The notes below the pieces were generated by a model. The model was not told the origin of the DNA. It saw only the letters and a list, made by a program, of their open reading frames with translations, and searched no databases. 64,000 nt of DNA, from contig DCQT01000033.1 in the NCBI GenBank assembly GCA_002323535.1, positions 31,663 through 95,662 of the forward strand. The letters run 5' to 3'. Source of the stretch: Bacteriovoracaceae bacterium UBA1511 (GTDB lineage: Bacteria > Bdellovibrionota > Bacteriovoracia > Bacteriovoracales > Bacteriovoracaceae). Shown here piece by piece: positions 19,149 through 34,683 of the stretch (position 1 is the first letter of the stretch; each line of letters begins with the position of its first letter). The position numbers were made by a program, and so were the translations under genes.

Positions 19149-21920
19149 TTAAAACCGTGGGGTGAATGTTCCTCGTGATCTTGCGTTCCTCGAGCCCATA
19201 GCCCCGAAGATTTGGTTAAACCTTCTTTGGTTCCTGTGATTACATGAATTATATCTTTCTATACAAGACGAAAGCCTTTGTTGATTTTGCCTGATGTATT
19301 CATTAATCGGGCTGGTCATAGAATCTTGTGGTTCTAGTAAATCTGTTAGCAAATAAGATTCTCCAGTAACTTCAATGCAGCTCAAGTAATTACCAAGGCA
19401 TGAATTTGCTGTGGCTTTTGCTAGGTCTAGGTTTCCTTCAAAGCGAATGTATCGAAGCTTACAAGTTGGATCATTACCACAATAATAATCTAAGCAGCCT
19501 CCAGCAGAGTTATGCCGCCTTGAAATATAACTTGATAGGCTATCGTTATCTTGGCCACCATTTTCATCGAATAGACTACTGTGATTTCTTCCATCTTCCA
19601 TCCACCAATCAAAAACCTCTTCAGGGGTGAGGTCGTATGGGTATAAGTCTGCAAGTACTTCTGGTGATTCACAATAATTTTTCACACATGAAAATGGGTC
19701 TTCTTCTCCTGCTTGCTCAAAGAGTATGTCCAAGTCATCATATCGACAAGAAAATGAATGTGCCTCTAATGAGGAGGAATTATCACTAATAGAGTAATTT
19801 CTCTCAGGAGTACTTTCATGTTGATTTTCATCTAAACCTTCTTGCGGGGTCGTTTCTGGGCTTTCTTGTTGTTCTCTACCTACAGGCTTTGAAACATAAG
19901 TACCACCAACTCTAAAATGAGATTTTTCGGTTGGTTCGTAATCAAGTTTAAGTGTCCAATCACCCAAAACAGACCAACTATAAGCTCTTTTGTTTGCGGC
20001 AACCTTAGGTGCCATGGATGCATCAAGCGAGTCACTTTTAAGGTACTCTTTTACGATAACTCCAAATTCATTATTTGCGAGATCTAAATGGTGAAGACCG
20101 TCGTTCTCAAAAGGTGTGTCATTGAAAACCTTTGATCTACCAACTATTGTTAAAGCCTTACCATAAAAAAGTAAGGAGTTTGAATTTTGCATTTTCCCGT
20201 AATGAAAAGAGTTGTAGGGTCTATTGTTAAAACCTGGTTGTGTTGTAAAGTTACAACCACTATGAATTATAAAACTTGGAGGTACGTCACGGAGTGTCTC
20301 ACTGTGGTAGATACTTTTCATCAGGAAAAAATTTGCGTACCCATTCACGTGATTTCGTAGGGAGACGCGTTTTATATTATAACTTTCATCATTCCACCAA
20401 TTGTAAATTTGATCACCTATTCTCAAGGTCAATGCCTCGTTTATTTGTTGTTCAATTATACTCATATAATTGTTCTCTAATGGTTCGGGTATTAAGTATA
20501 GGTTTGGAATTTGGTAATTAAATGTGCTAGACCTACTACTTGAGTGAGCGACTATTGATCTTAGCCTCATTGGTTTTTTAAGAAAATCTACATAATCAAT
20601 CAAATTTGCATTTTCCGGGCCGGAGACAGGAGCATCAAAGCTAGCATCCGCACTATGTGCATGATTTGTGGTTTCTTGTGAACTAAAGTCCTCTGCGGCA
20701 ATACCACCGCCCCTATAGGGTGTATCAGAATCCCCGCCATTCCTGAATTTATGATTGTGATCTAAATACTCAATGAGAAGCTTTCTTTCTAGATCTTTAT
20801 CCTGATTGAATCTGATGTCTGTATCGCTTGAGACTTCCACTGGTCTTCCATTTTCTCCCCCGTGATTATCTCTTGGTGTGAGAGAAATTTGTTTTGGATT
20901 AATCCTTGAAATCATTATTTCAGGTTGTGCCATTGGGTTTGGATTTCTTAAGTCTTCACTGGTTGCTTCCAGACTTAAATGTCGTTTGGAATAGGTGAGG
21001 GCTTTTGGAGAAATAACTCTTTCCCCTGTTATTCTTTTATAGGCATTTAATAGGCGTTTTTGACGTCTTGTAAGACCAGTCTGCATAAAGTCTGCATCGT
21101 TAACGAGGAAGAAATCTTCGAAGTGTTTGACTCCAGTCTCTGTTGTTGAAAAAACAGTATATTGATTATTTTTATGCCAGTCATTACCATAAATTCTTGA
21201 CGGTATGCCTTTGAAAAATGGTATCGCAGTTCTTGGTTGAAAATATAAATTTTCCCAATTCCCATCAAGGTCACTAAGAATAATATCAGAATTTGCAGCT
21301 CGAACCTCTGGGACAATTCTTAACCAACCGCGTTCATTTGTTTGAACCCCACTAATTTGAGTTTCTGCTTCTTTTCTCCAAATATAACGATGAATAATTT
21401 GGGTCTCTGGAAATGAGCCGATTAGTAAAGCTCCCTCAAAATTTCCGCGACTAAGAGTGTGAATATCTTTAAACATTCTTCTAAGCGCTAAAACAATTCT
21501 TCCATCTTGGTGAGTTCCTCCATTATATAAATCAGTCACAATAAAGTGCACATCTTTACCTTCTCGTTCGAGATCTTCTCTTAAATTATCAAAGCGCTTT
21601 TCAAGGTTAAATAAATTATAGTCTCTTGATGAAGTCCTCTCATGATCCAAAAGTCTTTTCTCAACCAGTACTATGACAACAGGTCTAGATCCGTGAAGAA
21701 GATTTTCTTTTTGTTGATACTTTCTAGTGTATTCCTCGGAGATATCATTCAGTTCCAGCTCTGAGGAGTAGTACATTTTAAGATCGTTAATTTCATTCGT
21801 ACCATCATTGTTAATGTCGAAATTTTTATACTGATTAATAACTGCCTTTAGCCTTGATGAACTCGCAGCCAAAGATACTGTTGAAAAAAGAGTAAATAAA
21901 ATTAATAGAATAAATTTCAT
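19149..21920 (-). CDS. Large secreted protein of unknown function (923 aa) with a C-terminal Cys-rich module
   Basis: Signal peptide MKFILLILFTLFSTVSLAASS. One DxNxDG Ca-loop-like motif (DINNDGTNEIND). The C-terminal ~150 aa carry repeated C-x3-Y-x(0-2)-C pairs shared with the 858-aa protein. Confidence 0.7.
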   Translation of the reverse strand: MKFILLILFTLFSTVSLAASSSRLKAVINQYKNFDINNDGTNEINDLKMYYSSELELNDISEEYTRKYQQKENLLHGSRPVVIVLVEKRLLDHERTSSRDYNLFNLEKRFDNLREDLEREGKDVHFIVTDLYNGGTHQDGRIVLALRRMFKDIHTLSRGNFEGALLIGSFPETQIIHRYIWRKEAETQISGVQTNERGWLRIVPEVRAANSDIILSDLDGNWENLYFQPRTAIPFFKGIPSRIYGNDWHKNNQYTVFSTTETGVKHFEDFFLVNDADFMQTGLTRRQKRLLNAYKRITGERVISPKALTYSKRHLSLEATSEDLRNPNPMAQPEIMISRINPKQISLTPRDNHGGENGRPVEVSSDTDIRFNQDKDLERKLLIEYLDHNHKFRNGGDSDTPYRGGGIAAEDFSSQETTNHAHSADASFDAPVSGPENANLIDYVDFLKKPMRLRSIVAHSSSRSSTFNYQIPNLYLIPEPLENNYMSIIEQQINEALTLRIGDQIYNWWNDESYNIKRVSLRNHVNGYANFFLMKSIYHSETLRDVPPSFIIHSGCNFTTQPGFNNRPYNSFHYGKMQNSNSLLFYGKALTIVGRSKVFNDTPFENDGLHHLDLANNEFGVIVKEYLKSDSLDASMAPKVAANKRAYSWSVLGDWTLKLDYEPTEKSHFRVGGTYVSKPVGREQQESPETTPQEGLDENQHESTPERNYSISDNSSSLEAHSFSCRYDDLDILFEQAGEEDPFSCVKNYCESPEVLADLYPYDLTPEEVFDWWMEDGRNHSSLFDENGGQDNDSLSSYISRRHNSAGGCLDYYCGNDPTCKLRYIRFEGNLDLAKATANSCLGNYLSCIEVTGESYLLTDLLEPQDSMTSPINEYIRQNQQRLSSCIERYNSCNHRNQRRFNQIFGAMGSRNARSRGTFTPRF
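19432..19498. repeat. 67-nt segment matching 24714-24780 in inverted orientation
   Basis: Hand alignment gives 55/67 identical with no gaps, including an exact 22-mer (19477-19498 versus 24714-24735). Encodes CLDYYCGxDxTCxLRYIRFEGN. Confidence 0.7.
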
Positions 21921-23041: not shown

Positions 23042-25618
23042 ATGAAAGGTTATATTTTTACATTTTTGTTATTCTTTAGCGCATCTATGAATTTATATGC
23101 GGGCCACTCCATTACTTATTCAGACAAAACGTACCCATGCTTTAGTTCAGATGGAACATTTAATTTATACAACAATGTTAGAAGGTGGAGTCGGGAGGAT
23201 TTTCTAATTGGTGGAAATGAAGCAAGGGAAGGCAAAAATTGTTATGGAGCGGGAGCTATTCCTCCTTGGGCACCTAGAATAGCTTATGAGGGATTGGATG
23301 CAATATTTTATCCTGTATGTCGGGAAAGTTATGCTCAAAGAATCGACCCTTATAAACATGGTATTATTTATTACCAAGAAGAAATTTGCCCAGAGGGCAC
23401 TCTTGAAAATTCGGTTTTTAGAGGTTTTTCACTAGATGAAGATTCTTTTTTCGTTGGATTAAATGCCGAGTATCACCGCTTACATGTTCCGTATCGGGCA
23501 ACTTCCCGCCTATCTCAACTAGGCTTTAGTAACCGTTGTGATCTTTTTCACCCAAAGACAAGATTGGCCGGATCAGTTTATTTATTGAAACAGCTTTCAT
23601 TGAATCAAAATTTGTTTGGAGGTCTACACGAGGATTGGAAACCTTATACTTATAATTTAGTGAATGAATCAGGGGGAGTCGAAAGAGAATGTGATGGAGG
23701 GTATTCAGCAGTTGCTACTCACTATGTGCATCAAATTACACTTTGGGAGAACTTTTTTTATTCAAATCATGTTGCCCACAACGCGAGTACGCTCTCTCAT
23801 GAAGGTCAGCATGAGATAGAGTCTCATATTTGGTGTGATCGCAGCGATAGAGGCTTCCAATGTGATACCGGTTATGAAATGTATAATGAGAGCCTGTTTG
23901 ATTTAGGAGACGATGATACAAACGCCTATACAATTTCTACTTGGGTTCAAGAGGATTTAATTAAATCTTTTAAAGTTTTAAATAATAGCACTAAACAGGT
24001 TATTCGATTTTATGACAGAGGAAGACCCAACCCTGGGTATAAATGTATCATGAGGCCTTTGCTTGAAGGATCTCTTGGGTTTTATGCTTTCAATTTTGTC
24101 TCATCAGATAATAAGGGATTCAATATTCCAAAACCTACTTATGAGTATGCGACCTACCCAGAAATGATGAGTGACTTAAACCCTTCCTGGCGTTGTGATG
24201 AGTACCTTTGTGATCCTGCAGACTATGTTTACCTTCCAGGCTTCGATACAAATCTAAGCTGTAATGAAACTCTTAACCGAGATAACATTGAAGTGAACGC
24301 TCATAATAGGATGGTCTGTGATCCGAATAGAGATATTGCAATCGATTATCGAGAAAGAATTATGAATGGATCGCAAGAGAATCACCAAAGTATCTATAAC
24401 AATTATTACAATACTATAATGCGAGAAAAAAGAGCGTGTGCTCCAATAACTCAAGCGCATGTAAGTAACTATTGTGATGAAAGAATTGCTGATGTTAATG
24501 ATGTAGCGATATTGGATGAATATGGTTATATGGAAAAATATTCTCGAAGTGGGGCAGACTTTTGCGTTCGTCGATTTTGTGAGCAAGACGATGTGGTTGA
24601 AAAAATTTGGGGAGAATACAGTGGTGAATATTTATACAACTGGTGGACTGGACTTGATCGAAGTGATGAGGAACTTCTTGAAAGGATTCAAAATACGTCA
24701 GGGGTGGGGAGGAGCTGCTTAGATTATTATTGTGGAGATGATTTAACCTGCATCCTTCGTTATATTAGATTTGAAGGAAATACAGAGTTAGTAAATGAAG
24801 ATTTGAATGAGTGCACAGAGACTTATTTGAGTTGCATTGAAGAAACGGGTGAGGATTTTAGACTGGAAGATTACCCGGAGTATATTATTTCAGAGGAAGC
24901 CGAAAAACCAAATTTAGGAGGATTAACAAGTTCCATTAGTGATGAGCCTGAAGAAGGCCATCTTAGTTCATTTGATCGCTTAAATCACTTTGCCTGCCTT
25001 GAGGCCTATAGAATGTGTGAGGTCCGAGAGGTCGCCATTAAAGGAAAGATATTGGCGAGCTTATATAAAGAAAGGGCCGATTCACTTCCATTTCTTACGA
25101 GAGCTCGAGGCGAAGAAAAAATAAACCCAAGTGATTTTATCTCTCCGCGATTAAGAAAATCTAGTAAGCAGTATTTTACAGATGAGTTACTTCACCATTT
25201 AGAGGGTTTAAATAAAGATCCATATAACTTTGAAAATTTAAAAAAGTTTAACTATTGGTACTCAATGCCTGAAAATAAATCAAGTTTTGCTCACTTTATG
25301 CCCGAGGGATTTTTAAGTATGTATGGAGAGGAATATTCTGAATACATAGCGGGGCCTTGGATAAAAAGTTTTTCGCCTTTAAGTAGAAAAGATCTAAGCA
25401 AGGTGAGCCCAGAGGTTTCTTCTTTGCTTAAAGAAAGAGATAAACTAAGTAAGCTGCTGGCGCATTATTCAGGAAAAAATATTAGATTTATTCTTTTGAA
25501 TGCGTCAAAAAAATTACCAAAAAAGAAGTACTTGTTTCTTCTTCGAAAGCTTAAAAAGGCAAAAAATCTATCCCAAAAAATAAAAGCTCTAAAGGCATTA
25601 ACGATAAAGAAAAAATAG
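23042..25618 (+). CDS. Large secreted protein of unknown function (858 aa) carrying the shared Cys-rich module
   Basis: Signal peptide. The module at about 24563-25018 is homologous to the C-terminus of the 923-aa protein. Lys-rich C-terminal tail. Confidence 0.7.
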   Translation: MKGYIFTFLLFFSASMNLYAGHSITYSDKTYPCFSSDGTFNLYNNVRRWSREDFLIGGNEAREGKNCYGAGAIPPWAPRIAYEGLDAIFYPVCRESYAQRIDPYKHGIIYYQEEICPEGTLENSVFRGFSLDEDSFFVGLNAEYHRLHVPYRATSRLSQLGFSNRCDLFHPKTRLAGSVYLLKQLSLNQNLFGGLHEDWKPYTYNLVNESGGVERECDGGYSAVATHYVHQITLWENFFYSNHVAHNASTLSHEGQHEIESHIWCDRSDRGFQCDTGYEMYNESLFDLGDDDTNAYTISTWVQEDLIKSFKVLNNSTKQVIRFYDRGRPNPGYKCIMRPLLEGSLGFYAFNFVSSDNKGFNIPKPTYEYATYPEMMSDLNPSWRCDEYLCDPADYVYLPGFDTNLSCNETLNRDNIEVNAHNRMVCDPNRDIAIDYRERIMNGSQENHQSIYNNYYNTIMREKRACAPITQAHVSNYCDERIADVNDVAILDEYGYMEKYSRSGADFCVRRFCEQDDVVEKIWGEYSGEYLYNWWTGLDRSDEELLERIQNTSGVGRSCLDYYCGDDLTCILRYIRFEGNTELVNEDLNECTETYLSCIEETGEDFRLEDYPEYIISEEAEKPNLGGLTSSISDEPEEGHLSSFDRLNHFACLEAYRMCEVREVAIKGKILASLYKERADSLPFLTRARGEEKINPSDFISPRLRKSSKQYFTDELLHHLEGLNKDPYNFENLKKFNYWYSMPENKSSFAHFMPEGFLSMYGEEYSEYIAGPWIKSFSPLSRKDLSKVSPEVSSLLKERDKLSKLLAHYSGKNIRFILLNASKKLPKKKYLFLLRKLKKAKNLSQKIKALKALTIKKK
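24714..24780. repeat. 67-nt segment matching 19432-19498 in inverted orientation
   Basis: Partner of feature 19432-19498: 55/67 identity by hand count, with a 22-nt exact run. Confidence 0.7.
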
Positions 25619-25632
25619 GCGAACATTGATTT

Positions 25633-26349
25633 ATGACTGTAAAAAAAACCAGATTCGCCCCAACGCCCAGTGGTTACTTACATCTTGGTAATGTTTATAA
25701 TGCTCTAGCGTGCCAAAAGTGGGCAAAAGAAAATAGCGCAAAACTTGTTCTTCGAATTGATGATATTGACCGGGCGCGGTTTCGAATTGAATACCTTGAG
25801 GATATTTTTAAAACCATGGATTGGCTTGGGATCGAATTTGACGAAGGGCCTAGTGGGGTAGAGGACTTTTTAAAAAACTACTCCCAGCACACAAAGCTTG
25901 ATCAATATAAAAAATATCTCGAACCCGTCTCTCAAGATACCTTTTCCTGTGAGTGCTCAAGAAAAGATTTACTTGGTACTGATCACTACCCCGGAACATG
26001 TAGAGAAAAAAATTTAGCGTACAAAGAAGACTTAAACTTAAGACTTAAACCCATGGATGTGATCATTTATAAAAAAGATCTTCTTCCTAGTTATCACTGG
26101 AGTTGTGTCATTGATGATTATGAAATGAAAATAACTCACCTCATCCGCGGGGAAGACTTAATTCCATCAACCAACATTCAAGAAAAATTAAGAGAGAAGT
26201 TAAATCTACCAGCTATTTCTTCAACCCATCATCCTCTTGTCACTGACAAATCTGGACAAAAACTTTCTAAGTCCACACTGAAAAATGGGGGGCCTTTGAA
26301 AACGATTATTAGTAAAAAGTCGTTATATAAAAAATTAAAAAACAAGTAA
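25633..26349 (+). CDS. gluQ: Glutamyl-Q tRNA(Asp) synthetase (short form)
   Basis: RFAPTPSGYLHLGN (HIGH-like), LRIDDID, Cys cluster CECS..YPGTCR and KLSKS. Confidence 0.85.
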   Translation: MTVKKTRFAPTPSGYLHLGNVYNALACQKWAKENSAKLVLRIDDIDRARFRIEYLEDIFKTMDWLGIEFDEGPSGVEDFLKNYSQHTKLDQYKKYLEPVSQDTFSCECSRKDLLGTDHYPGTCREKNLAYKEDLNLRLKPMDVIIYKKDLLPSYHWSCVIDDYEMKITHLIRGEDLIPSTNIQEKLREKLNLPAISSTHHPLVTDKSGQKLSKSTLKNGGPLKTIISKKSLYKKLKNK

Positions 26350-26354
26350 TACTT

Positions 26355-28025
26355 TTAACGGGCACATTGTTGACCCGTTATATGGTCAATAATAGATTGC
26401 CTATCAATCCCTCTGGCACTAAATTCTGCAGAGTTATTAATGAGGTTGTCCAAACGTGTGGCGCTAGTTGGATTATCTGTACTTCCTATTGACCTTAGAT
26501 AATTGTGGATTAAGTCTAAAGCATTTTCGTCAGTAAGTATTTTTTCTTTATTTTCAGTTGCACTTAAAAGCTGATCAAAAAACTCTATCGGATCACCATA
26601 ACACCGACCGGTTCTTGTGCATGTATATAAACCGGGATCATCCGATCCAAACTTAACACCGATCTTAGTATTTTCCAGGAGCAATTGTAATTGCTTTGCT
26701 ATTTTTTCTGGTTCATTCTCTCCAAGTATTTTGTATGTACTTGGCTGAAAAGAAATGTTTACACGACCTGGAAATAGTTCAGATAAAAAATTAATATTAT
26801 CCTCTGTCAGAGTCATACTGTGATTTACTGTAATCTTTAATTTTTTTCCACTTTGATTATCAACGTAAGAAAGGTTACTGAAAAATTGTTTAATGATTTC
26901 AGGATCCTGTAGATGCTCTCCTTCAAACATATGAAATGAAATAACAGGGTTTTCTTTTTGATCAACCCACCTCACTAATGCATCTCTTAGTCTTTTTTGA
27001 CCTTCTAGACCTTCTTGAGTTGAACTATCTAGACCTTCTTGAGTTGAACTATCTAGATTACTCCAGGAAACTTGACTTGTAAGCAGAGTAGCTCCCGGCT
27101 CATCATACTCTTTTGTGCTTGTGAACAAATCTATCTCGTCAGCATTTAGTGGAATGGTTTCTCCTTCCTTTAAATTGTAAAAATTTACTTTGTGAGATAC
27201 TTTCAGATTAATATTATTATTTAAAAATATATTTTTTAATTCTCTTATTGCTGCTTCATTACCTGCTTGGTCAATGAGTAGATAATCCATGTTGGCCATC
27301 ATGATTGTCATTGAAGAATGTCCTTGATTTGCCCACCTCTTCGAAAAGTTGTCCCAAATTTCTTTGATTTTTAAAGATGTTCCATCTATAATAACATCTT
27401 GATCTATAGTTTTAATTACAGCTCTTCTTGTTTTATGCATTCCTGGAAAAAGATCTCTACGAAACTGGGCAACTGTTGGGTTTGTATTCATCGCGAATTT
27501 CTCAGACCAAGAGAAAAGATTTCTATAATTTGAGGAAGAGAATTCCTCGACAGTCGTTCCTGTTAGTAATTTAAATTTTTCATCAAAGCTATTTAATAGA
27601 TCTTTTAATTTTTCTACTTGCTTGTCATTAAGTATGGCAAATTTTTTCTCTCTATTTGTTGGATTTGTAATCCTTGTTTTCCCGTGTTTTGGGTCGTCAC
27701 TTAGCTCTTCCATTAGGACTTGAAATTTTTTTTTAAAATTTTCTAAATCACAATTTGAGGAATAACCCCTTTGATGTTGATTTAAGCATAGCACCTCGTT
27801 GATGATACCGCGTATTTTTCCATCCTCTATATTTGGGGCGAATACCGCTAAGATTGCTTGATGATCTCTCATCGCCTTAGGATGATTTGCATGTTCAAGA
27901 AGAAAATCTTTTCCATTTTTCACAAGATCTTCTGGGCTTTGAGTTGTTGAGACATGGATATGGTCGCCTGCACTGTGTGCAAAAAAGTGAAAGAATGTGA
28001 TAAACGCAAAAAGTATAATTTTCAT
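26355..28025 (-). CDS. Secreted adenosine-deaminase-family (amidohydrolase) protein with a long insertion
   Basis: Signal peptide. HIH (27954-27962), HMFEGEH (26913-26933; H-x-x-E as in ADA HAGE), VNHS, ISFQPSTY (ADA CPWSSY) and GSDDP (26634-26645; ADA TDDP), in ADA order and with ADA-like spacing in the C-terminal half. I prefer the start at ATG 28025, preceded by GGGAGG. Confidence 0.5.
   Translation of the reverse strand: MKIILFAFITFFHFFAHSAGDHIHVSTTQSPEDLVKNGKDFLLEHANHPKAMRDHQAILAVFAPNIEDGKIRGIINEVLCLNQHQRGYSSNCDLENFKKKFQVLMEELSDDPKHGKTRITNPTNREKKFAILNDKQVEKLKDLLNSFDEKFKLLTGTTVEEFSSSNYRNLFSWSEKFAMNTNPTVAQFRRDLFPGMHKTRRAVIKTIDQDVIIDGTSLKIKEIWDNFSKRWANQGHSSMTIMMANMDYLLIDQAGNEAAIRELKNIFLNNNINLKVSHKVNFYNLKEGETIPLNADEIDLFTSTKEYDEPGATLLTSQVSWSNLDSSTQEGLDSSTQEGLEGQKRLRDALVRWVDQKENPVISFHMFEGEHLQDPEIIKQFFSNLSYVDNQSGKKLKITVNHSMTLTEDNINFLSELFPGRVNISFQPSTYKILGENEPEKIAKQLQLLLENTKIGVKFGSDDPGLYTCTRTGRCYGDPIEFFDQLLSATENKEKILTDENALDLIHNYLRSIGSTDNPTSATRLDNLINNSAEFSARGIDRQSIIDHITGQQCAR
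27005..27057. repeat. Perfect 24-bp tandem duplication (2 copies plus a 5-nt partial), in frame within the CDS
   Basis: CTAGACCTTCTTGAGTTGAACTAT at 27005-27028 and 27029-27052. Encodes LDSSTQEG twice. Confidence 0.95.
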
Positions 28026-28027
28026 TT

Positions 28028-31000
28028 TTACCTCCCACACGCTTTTTGCAATGATTTTATTATTTCTTCATCTGAGAAGAATTTCAATGCTGGGTTTTCT
28101 TTTCGTAGTTTTGAAATTCTTCGACTCATTGATGAACCTTCACCTGCTTCTAAAATCTTTTTAATTTTTATTAAAGCTTTCTCTGCAGTAGACACGCGAA
28201 CAGATGTTTTCAATTTTTCTAGCTCACTGGCCAATTCGCTGTTAACAGTTCTTTCAGGATTACTTTCGATTATTTCTTCGATAAGTCTTACTTGCGCTTT
28301 GATCCTGGATAGTTCTTTTCTATTTGCCTTAATAACCCGATAAGGCAAGGCCATTGCTGAATAGAAGGCACCAGGTATTTTTGCACCAGTTTGAATAACA
28401 GCATCTGAGACCTGCCGAGTTCTCGAAAATGGTTTCAAAAGATCTAGATTGTGCTCGATGATTTCTAAAGCTTTAGGTGCATCTTTGAAAATCTCTCTCA
28501 TTGACTCTAAGGCGATTTTTTCCGTTCCGCCTTCCGCTGCAGCTTTCATCTGTTTGACAAATTTATTTAAATTTTCACCATCAAGCGCTTCTAAAAATTC
28601 CCTTAATGCTTCTTCATTTTCAAACAGTCCCCGAAGAAAACTTCTCTTTGGTCTAAATCCTCTTGTCCACCCAGACCTAAGAGCGTCTATTATTTCAGGG
28701 TTGTCTGTGAGAAGGTCAAACATTTTTCTTCTTAATGCTTGGTCCTGTATATCCTCAAACCCTAGTTTTCTTATCATCTCCATTCTGTTTTTTTGGAGCA
28801 TATATTTTGAAGGATTTTTTAGGAAACTTGTTGGTTTCCCGGACATATTTGAAATCCGTCGAAGATCAGAATCAGTAAACTCTTCTAATTTAAATAACTC
28901 TTTGTATGTTGCTTTTAACTCATTCTTCGCAGCTGATGATGCCGCTTCAATCGCCTCTTTTGACGCATTAGAACCAACTAGTCTAGCAAGGGTTTTATTT
29001 GCTTTTTGAAATTTTCTATAGTGGGCAACTTCTTTTATGTCACCAAGAAAGCCAAGAGCAAATAATGGAACCATTGCCATTTCCATATTTGAATCTGAAA
29101 TAGCAGCATCATGTCGCTCATACATCTTAGTTAAGTCATCAATTGAGCAAGATTTATCGCCTTTATACAAGCAAGACAAATAGGACTGAAGTTCTCTAGT
29201 TGTTTGATATCTTTTTCCAAGAGAGCTATATAAATACCAACCAGTACAAATCGCGTCCCCAACAGCTCCAGCAACCTTTGCTGGTGGAGGGGCCATTGTT
29301 AGTGCACCAGCTGCTAAGCACGTTCCCATGACAATTCTCTCCACAACTTTATCAGCATCAAGATCCGCTTGTTCTTTTGCCCTCTCTTTGTTTAGTAAAC
29401 AGCTTCGAACCTCCTCTAGACCTGGGTTATCTGATATAAAGTCTTGTCCAACTTTTCCCTCAAGTAATCTAAGAAATTTATTTTGTTCCCCATCCTGGTC
29501 TTCCTCATTTTTACAAAGCTCCTTAAGTTCTTTGTCTAAAGCAGTGTAGTTCTCTTCAAACTCTGATTTTTGACTTATTTCAACACTACTAAACGGTTTT
29601 TCGTAATATCCGCCGAAAATGTTCCCACTATGTCTATATTTTACTTTGCAATTAGCAGGTTCAGCAGTGAAAGATGTACTGAATGGATCTTTATAAAACT
29701 TCACACATGTTTTTTCATCACCAGTTGCAAGTGAAAGTGAAATTGATGGATCCAAATTATTAAGGTCTTCAATACTAATTTCACCTGCACTAAACAGACT
29801 CGTTTTGCCCTCAGAAGGTTTTAGTCCAACACCTAATGCAGGAAACCTGGTTACAGTCTTCGCAATTGATTCCATTACGAGTCTAAATTCCTCTATTTCT
29901 TGTTTTGCTCGCTCAGCACTAACTTTAAAATCTCGTGTTTGCCTTCCTCCTTCGCTTGAGCACCACTCTCTTAAATTACCTCGGCCAATAATCGTTTCAC
30001 TGTCGTATGTTGGAATCGCTAATTGATCGGAGGGAAATTCGCTAGTATATCGGTCAACGGGAAGGCATATCGCGTATTTTCCTATACCTGTTATTAAGGT
30101 CTCAGCAATTGTTTGTCCTGTCTTAAGTAACCCTGGTTTAAATTTTTCATATTTTTTGTAAAGTTTGTGTGCTCTTTTGATCTGAGCTTGAAATGATTCC
30201 TTAATCTCTTTTAATTCTGTAGTGCTTAATTTTTCAGGTCGCTTGATACCAAGCTTTTTGCATTGGAACTTTTTATCTCTTGGCGCTTCTGAATAAAACT
30301 TGGAATCAAGGTTTGGACAATTTTCATTATTTGTTTTTAATCTGATAGAGATTGTTTTTAATGAACTCCCTTCAATCGTGTATAGATTATTTTTGTACTT
30401 TTTAATCTTTTTTATATAGTTTTCGTCATTAATTCTAGGTGTTAGTGATTTATTATTGATGACAGATCGACAGATCGCTTTGACTTTTTCAATTTTAGTT
30501 AAGTGTTTTATTGAGTCTTTTATAAAATTCTCTGAGTCGTAAGACTCTGGGTTACTTGCAATTTTCTTAATGACTTTTCCTATCCTTTTTTGAGCGTAAG
30601 GGTTTTTACATCTTCTGTTCTGGCAGTTGTCTGTGATACCACCTGGTTCTGATGTTTGAATGTCACATTTTACCTCGTCTTGTGATTTTGACTTTATCGA
30701 TAACTGTTTTGACCTAGAGGTTATACAGTGTCCTTTGTCTTTAGTTACTTTAAAGTCTCTTGGACACCTTCTTATTTTTGGGTGAACTATTTGATTATTC
30801 CTATTTGTCCGCCCCTCAATTTGTAGAGCTCCACGTCTCGAACCAACAACTTTTAAAAATGCATGTCTTGTTGTTGGTGGTATGACCTGGTCTAATTTAA
30901 CTCCCGTGCTTTTGGCCATTGCTAATAATTCTCTTCTGGACAGAGATGTTTGGAGACAGTCCATTCTTTTTTCAGGTAATTTTGTCATGCACACAGCAAA

Positions 31001-33352
31001 TTTTTTCTTAAGTGTGTGATTAACTTTTCTTGTTTCTGGGTCATAAAAACCCTGTTCATGATTTTGTTGTTCGGTAAATTTAATCAAATTGGAGAATGCT
31101 TTATAATTGCTTAATAATCTACATTTAGGATTATTTTTATCATTGTTACATTTTTCTTTGATCTCAGAAATTGCTAAATGAGATTCATAGGAAAAGCATT
31201 GAGTAGCGTATTTAGTAATTAACTCCTCCTCAAACCCAGTTCTTGGTTTTCCCTTGTAATCTTTACTCGCTTGAATTGCCTTAATTCGATTTCTTTGACC
31301 GATAGGAGCGGTCCTTACAAACTGTGGGAGACTTTTGAATGTAGCAGACTTGAATAGTTCTTGTCTTGCTTGACCACATGACAGCTCACTTACATCACAA
31401 GAGCTCGTCGGCTGCCTTTGGCACATGGCTTCCTCATCCTGCTTAATAAAATCTGAAATCTGTTGCAACGTTTTAGCTGGATAGTAACTAAGCTTTGGAA
31501 ATCCTTTTGCACACCTGGTTATGTAACGTTCTTGGTTAAATGTAAGGTCTGTTGACCTAACTCGGCTCATTCTAGACTTTCGATCGCTATAAACATCAGA
31601 CCTTGCTTCCCTTCTCTGTACTTCCGTCTTTTCGGGTGAGTATGCGTCTGTTGCAATTGGATTGTCTTTATTCTCTGTGTACTTAATTATAGGATTCAAA
31701 TTATAACTTTTACAACTTGGATTCTTTTTTAAAGCCTGTGCACTGCTTTGAGTCATCCTATCAGCATAAGAATATTGAAACGGTGAAAGGCTCCTTTGAG
31801 CACCTTTTTCTTCAATTGATTTAACTGAAGATATAACTGCTTTTTGAAGTCTGTATTTTTGAAAATCATTCAACTGTGATACTTGAACGCAAATTTTCTT
31901 GGGTAGTTGATCTAGTTTGGAGATGTAGAATTTTGTGAGTTGGGTATTACCTAAACATGACTTAATTTTGGATACTTCTTTTTTTTGTGCCGGGTGTAGA
32001 CACTTTTTTTGCTTGTTTGTCTTTGTAATTCTTAGTGTGGATACTTTTGCTCGTTCGCAAAATTTTAAGTCGGGAGAATGCAGTTGCGGTTTTTCTTTAC
32101 TTAATGGAGGGATTATCAGAGGTAGGGGGAATTTTGCATCAGACTTAATCTCAATTTGATACTGATCCTTTAGAGATTTAAAAATTATATCCTGATAGTA
32201 ACCGGCCATTTCTGGAAAACCTTTCCCTGGAGTGATAACTATTTTGGGCTTTTCCCCCTGAAGGGTCGATAACTTTATGTATGGTGCTAACCTCTGGATA
32301 AGTTTATTAAAATATTCGTTCTCCTCCGGGTTCTTGATTCTGCTTCTACCAATAGCTTTTTGCAATACTCCTGCTGCAACCTTCTTAGAGGCACAGCCCC
32401 AAACGCTAAAGCCTGAGCCGTATTCAAAAGGATTTTCCTCTGAGCAAGAATGAGGATCACAAAAACTTTTTGTTTTAAACTTTAAGCCTTGAAATTCAGA
32501 AAATGTGAGGTATCCACATCGGTTCTTAAGAGATTTACCTTTTAATTGTGATAAGTAATCACTCAGGCGAGGGCAGTTACAGTGGTGTTCACTTAAACAC
32601 TGTTCTGCAAATCCTTCTGCAAAAGGGATTCTTATATCCCTATCCCTCCATAAGTCATCCAGTCGACTTGTAACAGATGAGTGTGAATACTTAAGCCCCT
32701 CTTTTACACCTAATGTTAGAACTTGCTCAGGCACCTTCCTTTTTTTACATCTTAGGACTGTAAATTCTTTTTTTTGAAAAAGCTGAGATTTGTATATACC
32801 TTTGTCGGTTGTTGCTTTTGTGTACCCGTACAGTTTAAGTAGTTTTCTTATTATAACTTCGGGCATGTGGTCAATTTTCGAGTCCAGAAATTTTCTTAAT
32901 TTCTTGAATGATTTCGGGGTGAATATGCTCTCTGTAGATAAAAGTATTTCGCGCTTAAGCCTCAGGTAATTACTTATACTTCTGTGTCCCTGGTAGCGCG
33001 AATTATTTACAATTTCAGAGAAGATTGACTTAAATGGCTTGAGATAATCTTTGACAAGTTTAGTTGAGAGATTTTTAAGTCGTGCTGTTTTGTTGGCATC
33101 ATAATCGTTTTTATTTTTAATTACTTTAAATAACTCAATCTTTTCAAAGTCATCATCTTTTTGTTTTTGGGAGCATCTTTTGTAATCAACTAATACTCTT
33201 CCTCTAAGTATTGATGAGGCGGGTTCTGGCTCTCTTCGTGCTCTTTGGTCGCTCTTGTAGGACTCTATCTGTCGCTTGCAGGAATACTCACCTTGAGCGT
33301 AAGAGCTTGCAGTTATTAAGCAAATCAATGTAAAAAAGAAGTATCTATTCAA
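28028..33352 (-). CDS. Giant secreted Cys/Lys-rich protein of unknown function (1774 aa)
   Basis: Uninterrupted 5.3-kb ORF. TTG start, then signal peptide NRYFFFTLICLITASSYA. About 1250 aa are basic and Cys-rich, followed by a Gly/Ala hydrophobic segment and a ~450-aa Cys-poor helical tail. I recognise no family motif. Confidence 0.8.
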   Translation of the reverse strand: MNRYFFFTLICLITASSYAQGEYSCKRQIESYKSDQRARREPEPASSILRGRVLVDYKRCSQKQKDDDFEKIELFKVIKNKNDYDANKTARLKNLSTKLVKDYLKPFKSIFSEIVNNSRYQGHRSISNYLRLKREILLSTESIFTPKSFKKLRKFLDSKIDHMPEVIIRKLLKLYGYTKATTDKGIYKSQLFQKKEFTVLRCKKRKVPEQVLTLGVKEGLKYSHSSVTSRLDDLWRDRDIRIPFAEGFAEQCLSEHHCNCPRLSDYLSQLKGKSLKNRCGYLTFSEFQGLKFKTKSFCDPHSCSEENPFEYGSGFSVWGCASKKVAAGVLQKAIGRSRIKNPEENEYFNKLIQRLAPYIKLSTLQGEKPKIVITPGKGFPEMAGYYQDIIFKSLKDQYQIEIKSDAKFPLPLIIPPLSKEKPQLHSPDLKFCERAKVSTLRITKTNKQKKCLHPAQKKEVSKIKSCLGNTQLTKFYISKLDQLPKKICVQVSQLNDFQKYRLQKAVISSVKSIEEKGAQRSLSPFQYSYADRMTQSSAQALKKNPSCKSYNLNPIIKYTENKDNPIATDAYSPEKTEVQRREARSDVYSDRKSRMSRVRSTDLTFNQERYITRCAKGFPKLSYYPAKTLQQISDFIKQDEEAMCQRQPTSSCDVSELSCGQARQELFKSATFKSLPQFVRTAPIGQRNRIKAIQASKDYKGKPRTGFEEELITKYATQCFSYESHLAISEIKEKCNNDKNNPKCRLLSNYKAFSNLIKFTEQQNHEQGFYDPETRKVNHTLKKKFAVCMTKLPEKRMDCLQTSLSRRELLAMAKSTGVKLDQVIPPTTRHAFLKVVGSRRGALQIEGRTNRNNQIVHPKIRRCPRDFKVTKDKGHCITSRSKQLSIKSKSQDEVKCDIQTSEPGGITDNCQNRRCKNPYAQKRIGKVIKKIASNPESYDSENFIKDSIKHLTKIEKVKAICRSVINNKSLTPRINDENYIKKIKKYKNNLYTIEGSSLKTISIRLKTNNENCPNLDSKFYSEAPRDKKFQCKKLGIKRPEKLSTTELKEIKESFQAQIKRAHKLYKKYEKFKPGLLKTGQTIAETLITGIGKYAICLPVDRYTSEFPSDQLAIPTYDSETIIGRGNLREWCSSEGGRQTRDFKVSAERAKQEIEEFRLVMESIAKTVTRFPALGVGLKPSEGKTSLFSAGEISIEDLNNLDPSISLSLATGDEKTCVKFYKDPFSTSFTAEPANCKVKYRHSGNIFGGYYEKPFSSVEISQKSEFEENYTALDKELKELCKNEEDQDGEQNKFLRLLEGKVGQDFISDNPGLEEVRSCLLNKERAKEQADLDADKVVERIVMGTCLAAGALTMAPPPAKVAGAVGDAICTGWYLYSSLGKRYQTTRELQSYLSCLYKGDKSCSIDDLTKMYERHDAAISDSNMEMAMVPLFALGFLGDIKEVAHYRKFQKANKTLARLVGSNASKEAIEAASSAAKNELKATYKELFKLEEFTDSDLRRISNMSGKPTSFLKNPSKYMLQKNRMEMIRKLGFEDIQDQALRRKMFDLLTDNPEIIDALRSGWTRGFRPKRSFLRGLFENEEALREFLEALDGENLNKFVKQMKAAAEGGTEKIALESMREIFKDAPKALEIIEHNLDLLKPFSRTRQVSDAVIQTGAKIPGAFYSAMALPYRVIKANRKELSRIKAQVRLIEEIIESNPERTVNSELASELEKLKTSVRVSTAEKALIKIKKILEAGEGSSMSRRISKLRKENPALKFFSDEEIIKSLQKACGR

Positions 33353-33359
33353 TAGATAC
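33341..33359. promoter_or_regulatory. Perfect 9+1+9 palindrome centred on the start codon of the 1774-aa gene
   Basis: GTATCTATT-C-AATAGATAC. The TTG start (comp. 33350-33352) lies at its centre. Confidence 0.4.
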
Positions 33360-33384: not shown

Positions 33385-34683
33385 TTAGGGATTTGGAAAC
33401 CTCAATAATTTAGGCTTATGCTCACTACAGCTATATAGATTTTGTTTACGGTAAAACTTTTTACACCCAAACATTTTAAATATTCCTGGTTCCCTTAATA
33501 AAATTTCATTTAGTCTAAAACTCCCAGAGGGATGAACCCCGTCATCTTTAGTGCCGCATAGTATTTTGTAAGAGGAGGTGAGTAATCTAAGTTTTTTCAT
33601 TTTGCTATAGCTTCTATTTTCAAGCTCGCGTGAGATAGAATCAGCGGCGAAAATGTCGGCCATAATTTCGTCTTTGTAGTCGATAAGGATTCCTTTTGTT
33701 AACCATGACCCTGGATAATGATTGGCCATACAAAGTATTGTTTCAGACGCTCTTTTTGGAGAAATCACCATATGTTTTTCATGGCCAAAAAGATGTCCTA
33801 ATTCATGAGTGATGACCATTAACATTTTAAAAAATATCTCATCTCTGTGGTCTTCAATATTTTCTTTGTTGTATATTTCGGCCATGAAACTTGGACAAAA
33901 AGTAACAGGGATATTGTGAGGAAGTTCACTTAATTTTTGACCTGGCACGAATGCACTTCCAAAAACTCCATAATACGTGCAGTTTCGAATAAAGCCATCT
34001 CTTGCAAAGTCATAACTGTCTTTAAACCTTGCTTCTGCTTTTGGGTTCAAACTAAAAAGCGGTTTGATGCGGTTTAAAAGTTCTAAGGCACTTTTAATTT
34101 TTTCTTCTTTTTGTTTTCCACTATATTGTTTTGATAAATGGTTTTTTATACTTGTTGAAAATGTTTCAATTGATGAGTTGAAAATATCTTCTAAAAGATC
34201 TTCTTTTGGTTCTATAATATCACTAAGGTGTTGTTGTTGTCGTTGATAGTACTCAGCAAATAGGTTTTCTTTTAGCTTAATTACTTGCTCTTCTTTTTCA
34301 AGATATTTATTTAAAACTGTATCTAGTTTAGAGTTGATTTCACCCCATCCACAAGTTTTAGGTATCTCTTCTTGTGATCCACATCTGTTGAACATTTTTA
34401 TATCAAAATCAAAAAATTGGCTTGTATCTAATTCATTTATTCCGTGAATTTTGAAGAGATCAACACTACTTTCGATTGTCTCGTAAAAGGGCTTTAGTGC
34501 AATCCTTCTTATACTTTTTTGATTGCTTTTGAAGTTTTTTGAGTCGCAAATAACACTTGTTGGGTTTTTACAAAATTTTTCAAAAATAGGATCTTCTAAT
34601 TCTTTACTAGACTGACAGCTCTCGCTTCTCAAGGCCGCATTTATTAGTAGCGTGCTTAATATTAAAATTAATTTTGTTTTCAT
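33385..34683 (-). CDS. Secreted zinc metallopeptidase-like protein (HExxH), family unassigned
   Basis: Signal peptide. MLMVITHELGHLFGHEKH (about 33775-33807). Several Cys residues. Confidence 0.65.
   Translation of the reverse strand: MKTKLILILSTLLINAALRSESCQSSKELEDPIFEKFCKNPTSVICDSKNFKSNQKSIRRIALKPFYETIESSVDLFKIHGINELDTSQFFDFDIKMFNRCGSQEEIPKTCGWGEINSKLDTVLNKYLEKEEQVIKLKENLFAEYYQRQQQHLSDIIEPKEDLLEDIFNSSIETFSTSIKNHLSKQYSGKQKEEKIKSALELLNRIKPLFSLNPKAEARFKDSYDFARDGFIRNCTYYGVFGSAFVPGQKLSELPHNIPVTFCPSFMAEIYNKENIEDHRDEIFFKMLMVITHELGHLFGHEKHMVISPKRASETILCMANHYPGSWLTKGILIDYKDEIMADIFAADSISRELENRSYSKMKKLRLLTSSYKILCGTKDDGVHPSGSFRLNEILLREPGIFKMFGCKKFYRKQNLYSCSEHKPKLLRFPNP

Follow-up and report, generated by a model that had tools for sequence, protein, structure and literature searches.

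The window analysed here is a 64,000-nucleotide (nt) stretch of contig DCQT01000033.1 (positions 31,663 to 95,662) from Bacteriovoracaceae bacterium UBA1511, and it belongs to a metagenome-assembled genome (MAG) of 1.86 Mb that is 62.6% complete and has a G+C content of 36%. The minus strand of the window carries a single open reading frame (ORF) of 1774 codons, referred to below as the giant gene. This ORF is a real gene for an exported, positively charged protein, and the family to which its product belongs is new in sequence and, as far as can be told, in fold. The protein consists of a basic, cysteine-rich body and a conserved C-terminal module (C-module) that are separated by a variable linker. 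The gene and the features of its product are as follows.

28028–33352, minus strand: giant gene, 1774 codons plus stop, TTG start, a single open reading frame
33296–33352, minus strand: signal peptide, residues 1–19, predicted cleavage SYA|QG, read from the sequence
29807–33295, minus strand: N-terminal body, residues 20–1182, basic (isoelectric point (pI) 9.7), 34 conserved Cys, repeat-free
29573–29806, minus strand: variable linker, residues 1183–1260, the block of lowest identity (22%), with indels
29024–29572, minus strand: C-module head, residues 1261–1443, six invariant Cys and a second short hydrophobic helix at 1423–1437
29228–29335, minus strand: Gly/Ala-rich helix-PPP-helix hairpin, residues 1340–1375, one Cys per arm
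28031–29023, minus strand: helical tail, residues 1444–1774, with C1772 as the lone Cys
28613–28702, minus strand: basic motif NPEIIDALRSG..RG.R.KRS.LR.LFEN, residues 1551–1580, in the tail

A first-pass annotation made from the letters of this DNA had proposed one ORF of 1774 amino acids with a signal peptide and a two-part architecture. Both proposals hold, and the architecture is conserved in the two clades of the family described below.

Homologues and distribution of the family

A word-indexed search of 5.8 billion proteins identified one relative of the giant protein, P0004 (1784 amino acids, 39% identity), encoded on ENA contig L002 (ERZ27275810). A pattern scan of JGI metagenomes provided a third copy, L030 (JGI Ga0233434), which is 77% identical to L002. 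A HMMER pass using a profile of residues 660–1774 against 1.84 billion cluster representatives returned only eight proteins, comprising the two already known and six short pieces that sit on three ENA long-read ('pilon') contigs, in which frameshifts split many genes. The contigs of this second clade (clade B) are L039 (ENA ERZ28548099), L040 (ENA ERZ28548060) and the contig carrying P0007 and P0008. Comparison of six-frame translations of L039 and L040 with the family hidden Markov model (HMM) gave collinear fragments over model positions ~29 to 1721, and this near-complete, collinear coverage identifies them as full-length distant homologues rather than stand-alone domains. Their identity to the giant protein is 22–33%. 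The two-module layout, the Cys framework, the hairpin motif and the basic motif are shared by both clades. Outside the window's own assemblies the family is found on five metagenome contigs in total, none of which has been annotated or studied. The protein had been described as an orphan, which is correct in that it matches no known family, but it is not a strict singleton. Searches of full-text papers found no description of the family.

One clade-B member differs at its C-terminus. On L040 (10001–12307, P0006 residues ~360–768) an additional Cys-free C-terminal extension of approximately 400 residues is present, with no Pfam or PDB match, and the C-terminal end of the family is therefore variable in length.

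Searches of sequenced genomes with the C-module or full-length profile did not identify the family in the species representatives of 200 genomes of the same bacterial family, 237 other genomes of the class and 400 genomes of the phylum; the best matches were at chance level (E 6e-4 to 9e-3 per genome). A pattern scan of GTDB genome contigs likewise found no family member. The C-module profile returned nothing from the 5.8 billion proteins, a search in which common words probably swamped the candidate list. The MAG itself encodes no paralogues of the giant protein. In the one other genome of the genus, the contig breaks off within the neighbouring enoyl-CoA hydratase gene, which makes this genome uninformative for the locus. 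In the complete genome of another genus, the hydratase gene is followed by genes for methionyl-tRNA synthetase and a hybrid kinase, with no giant gene at the syntenic place, and because of this absence the giant module appears to be a lineage-specific gain. A fragment of SRP54 on the clade-B contig L039 is 83% identical to that of the MAG, and it is less similar to every other phylum genome searched. Compared with the 22–33% identity of the giant proteins, this value places the family in a narrow lineage, inside one bacterial family of the predatory-type class Bacteriovoracia, in which it diverges far faster than core genes.

The giant protein is under purifying selection. The frame is open over 5.2–5.4 kb in each of the three clade-A copies, and the ratio of non-synonymous to synonymous substitution rates (dN/dS) between the two closest homologues, L002 and L030, is 0.30 over the whole gene and falls to 0.11 in the hairpin block. 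When identity was calculated per block of approximately 100 residues, values of 13–47% were obtained for the body and 44–66% for the C-module, the most conserved part of the protein.

Gene start and export

Upstream of the TTG start, the open frame continues for just 19 codons, none of which is an alternative start codon. The protein is near letter-identical in four public assemblies (JGI, NCBI, ENA and Logan), so assembly error is not an issue for this gene. A scan of the locus for promoters and terminators gave scores no better than those of shuffled sequences. A perfect 19-nt palindrome (GTATCTATTGAATAGATAC, 33341–33359) is centred on the TTG start; the L002 and L030 homologues, both of which begin with ATG, do not keep it at their starts.

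The N-terminus of the giant protein (MNRYFFFTLICLITASSYA|QG) reads as a typical Sec-dependent, type I signal peptide. After correction of the start positions, signal peptides were also found in the homologues on L002 (MKDSKFRFKNFLLYMIIFCAGISNSVRA|D), L030 (MKLGLKNFFLLMILCWAG) and L039 (KSSKALLIAGLILTSFQLFA|D), and every complete N-terminus in the family begins with one. A lipoprotein reading of the giant protein was dropped, as C11 has no preceding lipobox and is not conserved. The MAG carries a DsbB gene adjoining a gene for a DsbA-like protein, together with three other DsbA-like proteins (four in all), and oxidative folding is therefore available to the giant protein. Two secretins are also encoded in the MAG, and these may provide a route of exit through the outer membrane.

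Composition of the body and the cysteine framework

The body was expected to be rich in Lys and Arg with scattered Cys, and the composition of residues 21–1250 bears this out (Lys 12.8%, Arg 6.3%, Cys 2.9%, pI 9.7). The net charge of the protein is approximately +6% of residues, which is among the highest of the large exported proteins of the MAG, and its Lys plus Arg content lies at about the 95th percentile of the MAG's own ORFs. With 42 Cys after residue 30, the giant protein has the top count among the listed large (at least 800 amino acids) exported-like proteins of the MAG, and in Cys density it ranks close to the 90th percentile of the exported-like MAG proteins. The Cys are scattered as the first-pass annotation stated, but its mention of many CxxxxC-type pairs goes too far; only two exact CX4C pairs are present (298/303 and 910/915), and the other close pairs are of the CX1C and CX5–13C types. 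The protein had also been called unusual for its size, a claim that is weakened by the finding that large, exported, Cys-rich proteins without domains are not rare in the MAG or in the bacterial class. No internal repeats were detected by self-BLAST, and an all-against-all profile-profile comparison of eight segments of the protein gave probabilities of at most 1.1% throughout, in agreement with the repeat-free character noted earlier. The motifs of the body that survive into clade B are CFEYES, NGF.NP.TG, CP.GF and KAK.IC.

Conservation of the Cys residues far exceeds that of the rest of the sequence: P0004, which is 39% identical overall, retains 41 of the 43 mature Cys. The two exceptions, C1216 and C1235, sit together in a linker insertion specific to the window, and C644 and C652 are jointly missing from clade B, forming a pair found only in clade A. 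The Cys are thus gained and lost pairwise, within indels, which is the behaviour expected of disulfide partners. The conserved set comprises 34 Cys in the body, six in the C-module head (1280, 1318, 1345, 1369, 1394 and 1402, all invariant) and one odd residue, C1772, located three residues from the end. By this parity, the protein is predicted to contain about 20 intramolecular disulfides formed in an oxidising compartment, 17 of them in the body and three in the C-module head, with one Cys unpaired. Past C1402, C1772 is the single Cys in 372 residues.

The C-module

The C-module begins with the Gly/Ala-rich hydrophobic stretch that had been placed at about 29225–29345, and which was located here at residues 1343–1375 (29228–29326, GTCLAAGALTMAPPPAKVAGAVGDAICTGWYLY). 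It forms most of a predicted hairpin with the motif TC[LM]A[AS]G..T[LM]AP.P......GD.ICTG.Y, in which two arms of approximately 15 hydrophobic residues each are separated by a Pro-rich turn; this motif is conserved in both clades. The hairpin is followed by an invariant SC.......SC pair, a short hydrophobic helix, the residues D1438, H1444 and K1447, and finally the basic tail. The D1438-H1444-K1447 cluster is invariant and the basic motif of the tail is almost invariant.

The 15-residue arms match the core of the signal peptide in hydrophobicity, and the Kyte-Doolittle peaks of the protein reach 1.36–1.84, while the crude biological-scale energy of insertion is unfavourable. The best 19-residue windows of the hairpin score +4.5 to +7.6 kcal/mol, and the values are higher in clade B. 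This unfavourable energy argues that the hairpin is not a constitutive transmembrane anchor. The hairpin may be a buried segment that engages a membrane conditionally.

Database and structure searches

Searches of the giant protein against Pfam, NCBIfam, PHROG and PADLOC, in which a match was accepted at the curated cut-off or at E <= 0.001, gave none over the cut-off. The best hit was FANCI_S1-cap with 15.9 bits against a cut-off of 28. The RHS/YD, RTX, Ig-like, VCBS and LRR signatures that the protein was said to lack were not matched, nor were pre-toxin domains, Sel1 or TPR, and the segments showed no similarity to each other at the profile level. The colicin-type pore-forming domain PF01024 had no HMM match in the giant protein even at E <= 1. 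The clade-B pieces corresponding to parts of the giant family gave no Pfam or PDB-sequence match over the threshold. Searches of PDB by phmmer and by three profiles returned nothing below E 0.12.

AlphaFold2 was run on the two parts of the protein with 3-sequence alignments that comprised clade-A sequences. The model of the C-module (residues 1260–1774) has a predicted local distance difference test (pLDDT) score of 54.9 and is all helix by DSSP; its only moderately confident part is residues 1464–1640, which score 70–88. The Cys-poor, helical tail proposed from the sequence is consistent with this model and with the position of C1772. The model of the N-terminal body (pLDDT 37.9) is unusable and too poor for Foldseek. 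Foldseek comparison of the low-confidence C-module model with PDB gave E values of at least 0.5 and template modelling (TM) scores of at most 0.15, with generic long-helix proteins only; against the viral models of BFVD the E values were at least 0.2, and TM scores did not exceed 0.18 across both searches. A match across the length of the protein, sought in Pfam, in PDB sequences and, for the C-module, with Foldseek, was thus not found.

Neighbouring genes

The giant gene is the middle gene of a co-directional trio that lies downstream of an enoyl-CoA hydratase gene. The features of the trio that adjoin the giant gene are as follows.

33385–34683, minus strand: upstream gene for a putative zincin, exported product of 432 amino acids with HELGH, EIMAD and CG..DDG.HPSG.FRLN motifs
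26355–28025, minus strand: downstream coupled gene, ATG at 28025, exported product of 556 amino acids with HxH...HxxE...DD motifs
28031–28036, minus strand: GGGAGG Shine-Dalgarno sequence of the downstream gene, formed by the last two codons (Gly-Arg) of the giant gene, 5 nt before the ATG at 28025

The gap between the zincin gene and the start of the giant gene is 32 nt. The location of a Shine-Dalgarno sequence inside the last codons of the giant gene implies that its translation is coupled to that of the downstream gene. Both the giant protein and the coupled downstream protein have an odd number of Cys, and in both a Cys lies three residues from the C-terminus (28031–28039, ...ACGR; 26355–26366, ...QCAR). 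These terminal Cys could form an intermolecular disulfide, or their positions may be a coincidence, as the Gly-Arg codons double as the Shine-Dalgarno sequence.

Neither the zincin nor the downstream protein matched Pfam, NCBIfam, PHROG or PADLOC over the cut-off. The zincin belongs to a family of unannotated exported proteins of 360–450 amino acids with invariant HE..H, E..AD and C..D...H.....R motifs, and two paralogues are encoded in the MAG (G000:C63:3883-5088 and G000:C102:6965-7420). The HExxH, ExxxD and D.H.P...FR.N motifs of peptidase M13 and other zincins are all invariant in 12 members of the family. A profile of these 12 members gave a weak match to neprilysin (M13; E 0.008) at the matching catalytic and C-terminal sites, and in the opposite direction the Pfam M13 model detected one member at E 0.085. 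Members of the zincin family were detected in 33 of 201 genomes from the bacterial family; outside clade A their genes do not lie beside giant genes. The downstream protein contains HxH, HxxE and DD motifs in the order seen in the adenosine-deaminase superfamily, a resemblance at the motif level only; Pfam (A_deaminase included), NCBIfam and PDB gave no support for a deaminase. Within the downstream gene, 27005–27057 encodes an in-frame doubled octapeptide (LDSSTQEG LDSSTQEG).

The order hydratase, zincin, giant and third gene is kept in L002, and L030 has the same order through the giant gene, where its contig ends. The third genes of the window and L002 are barely alignable and have little in common beyond an H.FEGE motif. 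The clade-B loci lack both the zincin and the hydrolase neighbours, and the trio is therefore an arrangement of clade A that is not obligatory for the family. In clade B, the ORF just upstream of the giant homologue is not a zincin and shows sub-threshold matches to the carbohydrate-binding F5/8 type C (discoidin) domain (L039:4351-5778, E 0.014; L040:4365-5000, E 0.0007).

Proposed role and alternative explanations

Predatory bacteria are under exploration as living antibiotics, but much of what they export has not been given a role, and big unannotated proteins are frequent in this exported set. A protein that acts where predator meets prey would be expected to combine narrow lineage restriction with fast evolution. 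The reading preferred here, which is tentative, is that the giant protein, exported by Sec and stapled by disulfides, is polycationic and binds an anionic target envelope, with the C-module as its active and possibly membrane-interacting end. The N-terminal body would resist proteases and, being positively charged, would bind an anionic surface (for example prey lipopolysaccharide, envelope or nucleic acid), and the conserved C-module would be the working end of the protein. In the soluble protein the short hydrophobic hairpin would be buried, with the capacity to engage a membrane. The protein would then be a secreted or surface-exposed factor for predation or contact, not a housekeeping protein, and in the window's clade its production would go along with that of two other exported proteins, the zincin and the hydrolase-like protein. 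Several observations weigh against this proposal. Part of the high Lys content follows from the genome's G+C content of 36%, and a soluble helical bundle can have Gly/Ala-rich hydrophobic helices as nothing more than its core. No secretion-system tag, beta-barrel or adhesin domain is recognisable in the giant protein, and its release beyond the periplasm is a prediction. The link to predation is drawn from the placement of the MAG in Bacteriovoracia. The fold is not assignable from models with pLDDT values of 54.9 and 37.9, and the clade-B loci lack the zincin and hydrolase neighbours.

A self-contained delivery device for predation would extend the proposal considerably, and is regarded as a long shot. 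The body would dock on the prey envelope, the disulfide-locked hairpin would be freed, for example by reduction or by cleavage with the co-encoded zincin, and would enter the prey membrane, and the Cys-free basic tail would then cross this membrane or make a lesion in it. If true, AB-toxin-like logic would have arisen independently for predation of bacteria on bacteria, on a fold with no known relatives.

The main rival to the envelope-binding proposal is that the protein has a structural or scaffolding role in the periplasm or outer envelope of its own producer, where it would be cross-linked by disulfides and not directed at prey. The presence of a Sec signal and the absence of a recognisable secretion-system signal fit this explanation, as do the many disulfides, the unpaired C-terminal Cys that could cross-link, and the further large Cys-rich exported proteins of the same MAG. 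Envelope building blocks are usually found family-wide, however, and the giant protein occurs in none of the 237 other class genomes and none of the 400 phylum genomes, diverges much more quickly than those organisms' core genes and is missing from the syntenic place in another genus. A structural role is therefore considered possible but doubtful. Placement of the protein in the inner membrane, with a periplasmic Cys-rich part, the hairpin and residues 1423–1437 as spanning segments and a cytoplasmic tail, would give it the character of a giant receptor or anchor. Cys-rich sequence gives way abruptly to Cys-free sequence immediately after three short hydrophobic segments, and this switch, like the basic residues after the hairpin, would suit such a topology. 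These segments have only about 15 hydrophobic residues and also contain polar positions, Pro-Pro-Pro and an invariant Asp; over 19 residues the cost is +4.5 to +9 kcal/mol, the segments are still less hydrophobic in clade B, and the C1394/C1402 pair falls after the hairpin, all of which make an integral membrane protein highly improbable.

An unlikely explanation is that the C-module is an enzyme or toxin of the Cys/His/Asp type, delivered by the body, with C1345 or C1369, D1438 and H1444 as candidate residues. T1344-C1345, G1365-D1366, C1369, D1438, H1444 and K1447 are invariant across both clades, and the hairpin block has the lowest dN/dS, 0.11. Against a catalytic role, no HMM or PDB match to hydrolase or toxin families was obtained, the low-confidence all-helical model has no beta elements of papain-like or transglutaminase-like folds, and the even number of six Cys suits three disulfides over a free nucleophile. 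A small immunity-type gene is absent downstream, and conservation is highest in the C-terminal part, the reverse of polymorphic toxins. Rather improbable, too, is an extracellular trio for nutrient scavenging, in which the body would capture prey nucleic acids or other polyanions beside a zincin protease and a purine-deaminase-like hydrolase. The tight operon with translational coupling, the very high net positive charge of the giant protein and the ordered adenosine-deaminase superfamily motifs of the downstream protein speak for it; against it, neither HMMs nor PDB support a deaminase, the window and L002 have downstream genes that hardly align, and both neighbours are absent in the clade-B loci. 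That the ORF is spurious or decaying and untranslated, as its non-ATG start and the lack of annotation anywhere might suggest, is effectively excluded by the 5.3-kb open frame at 36% G+C and the four independent assemblies with essentially identical sequence. The gene behaves as translated, with frames open in three diverged full-length copies of clade A, near-total Cys conservation (41/43) and a dN/dS of 0.30.

Comparison with known systems and significance

Single-chain toxins and bacteriocins, such as colicin-type pore formers and the CNF1/PMT/DNT class, combine a binding body with a hydrophobic helical hairpin and a helical or effector end, and are compared with the giant protein by analogy only. 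The likeness lies in a large N-terminal part followed by two short hydrophobic helices with a tight turn, which sit inside an otherwise amphipathic region that is modelled as all-helical, in a protein that is exported and has its conserved part at the C-terminus. Unlike these toxins, the giant protein has a disulfide-rich body, no immunity gene and no recognisable catalytic domain, and no sequence match to them exists; the low-confidence model has no fold match. Its hairpin arms are also shorter and less hydrophobic, with one Cys each. A colicin-type hairpin has approximately 40 residues and is able to span a membrane. The giant protein has two arms of approximately 15 residues around PPP, with the crude energies of +4.5 to +7.6 kcal/mol given above. 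The adjacent small membrane immunity gene of colicin-type systems was not found, the downstream gene encoding the 556-residue exported protein instead.

The exported Cys-rich envelope proteins of obligate intracellular or host-associated bacteria (chlamydial OmcB/OmcA type), again an analogy only, are alike in Sec export, many conserved Cys, restriction to a lineage and the lack of an enzymatic signature. There is no homology. The giant protein is three times the size of these proteins, with a mostly helical structure and a strongly basic character; it also has a distinct Cys-free C-terminal module, and it is not conserved across the bacterial family to which its own producer belongs. In polymorphic toxins (Rhs, CdiA, MafB and similar) a variable C-terminal toxin tip follows a conserved N-terminal trafficking part, whereas the C-module is the most conserved part of the giant protein (58–66% identity against 13–47% elsewhere; dN/dS 0.11). 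RTX and type I adhesins and autotransporters differ from the giant protein, which is repeat-free, has a Sec signal peptide and has a C-terminus that is all-helical in the model. The Cys-rich repeat proteins of the Sel1-like/Hcp type are built of tandem modules that the giant protein lacks.

A membrane-active C-module would establish a new family of antibacterial proteins; without such activity it would still represent a new family of folds and be useful as a marker for one narrow marine lineage. For now, the giant protein is of value because it offers structure determination and secretome work a well-delimited target, and the disulfide-stapled hairpin module in particular is a well-defined target for structural studies and tests of membrane activity.

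Other genes in the window and the MAG

Two further large exported proteins with no Pfam match are encoded near the trio, one of 923 amino acids on the minus strand (19149–21920) and one of 858 amino acids with 24 Cys on the plus strand (23042–25618). Elsewhere in the MAG, the minus strand of G000:C72 contains an ORF of 1554 codons at offset 3712, whose product is exported and basic (+4.7% net charge) with 25 Cys; no similarity between this protein and the 1774-residue giant protein was detectable. A 238-codon ORF on the plus strand (25633–26349) encodes a protein that matches class I Glu/Gln tRNA synthetases just over their N-terminal catalytic part and resembles a truncated paralogue of the GluQ-RS type. 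This ORF converges on the end of the trio, from which it is separated by a gap of 5 nt.

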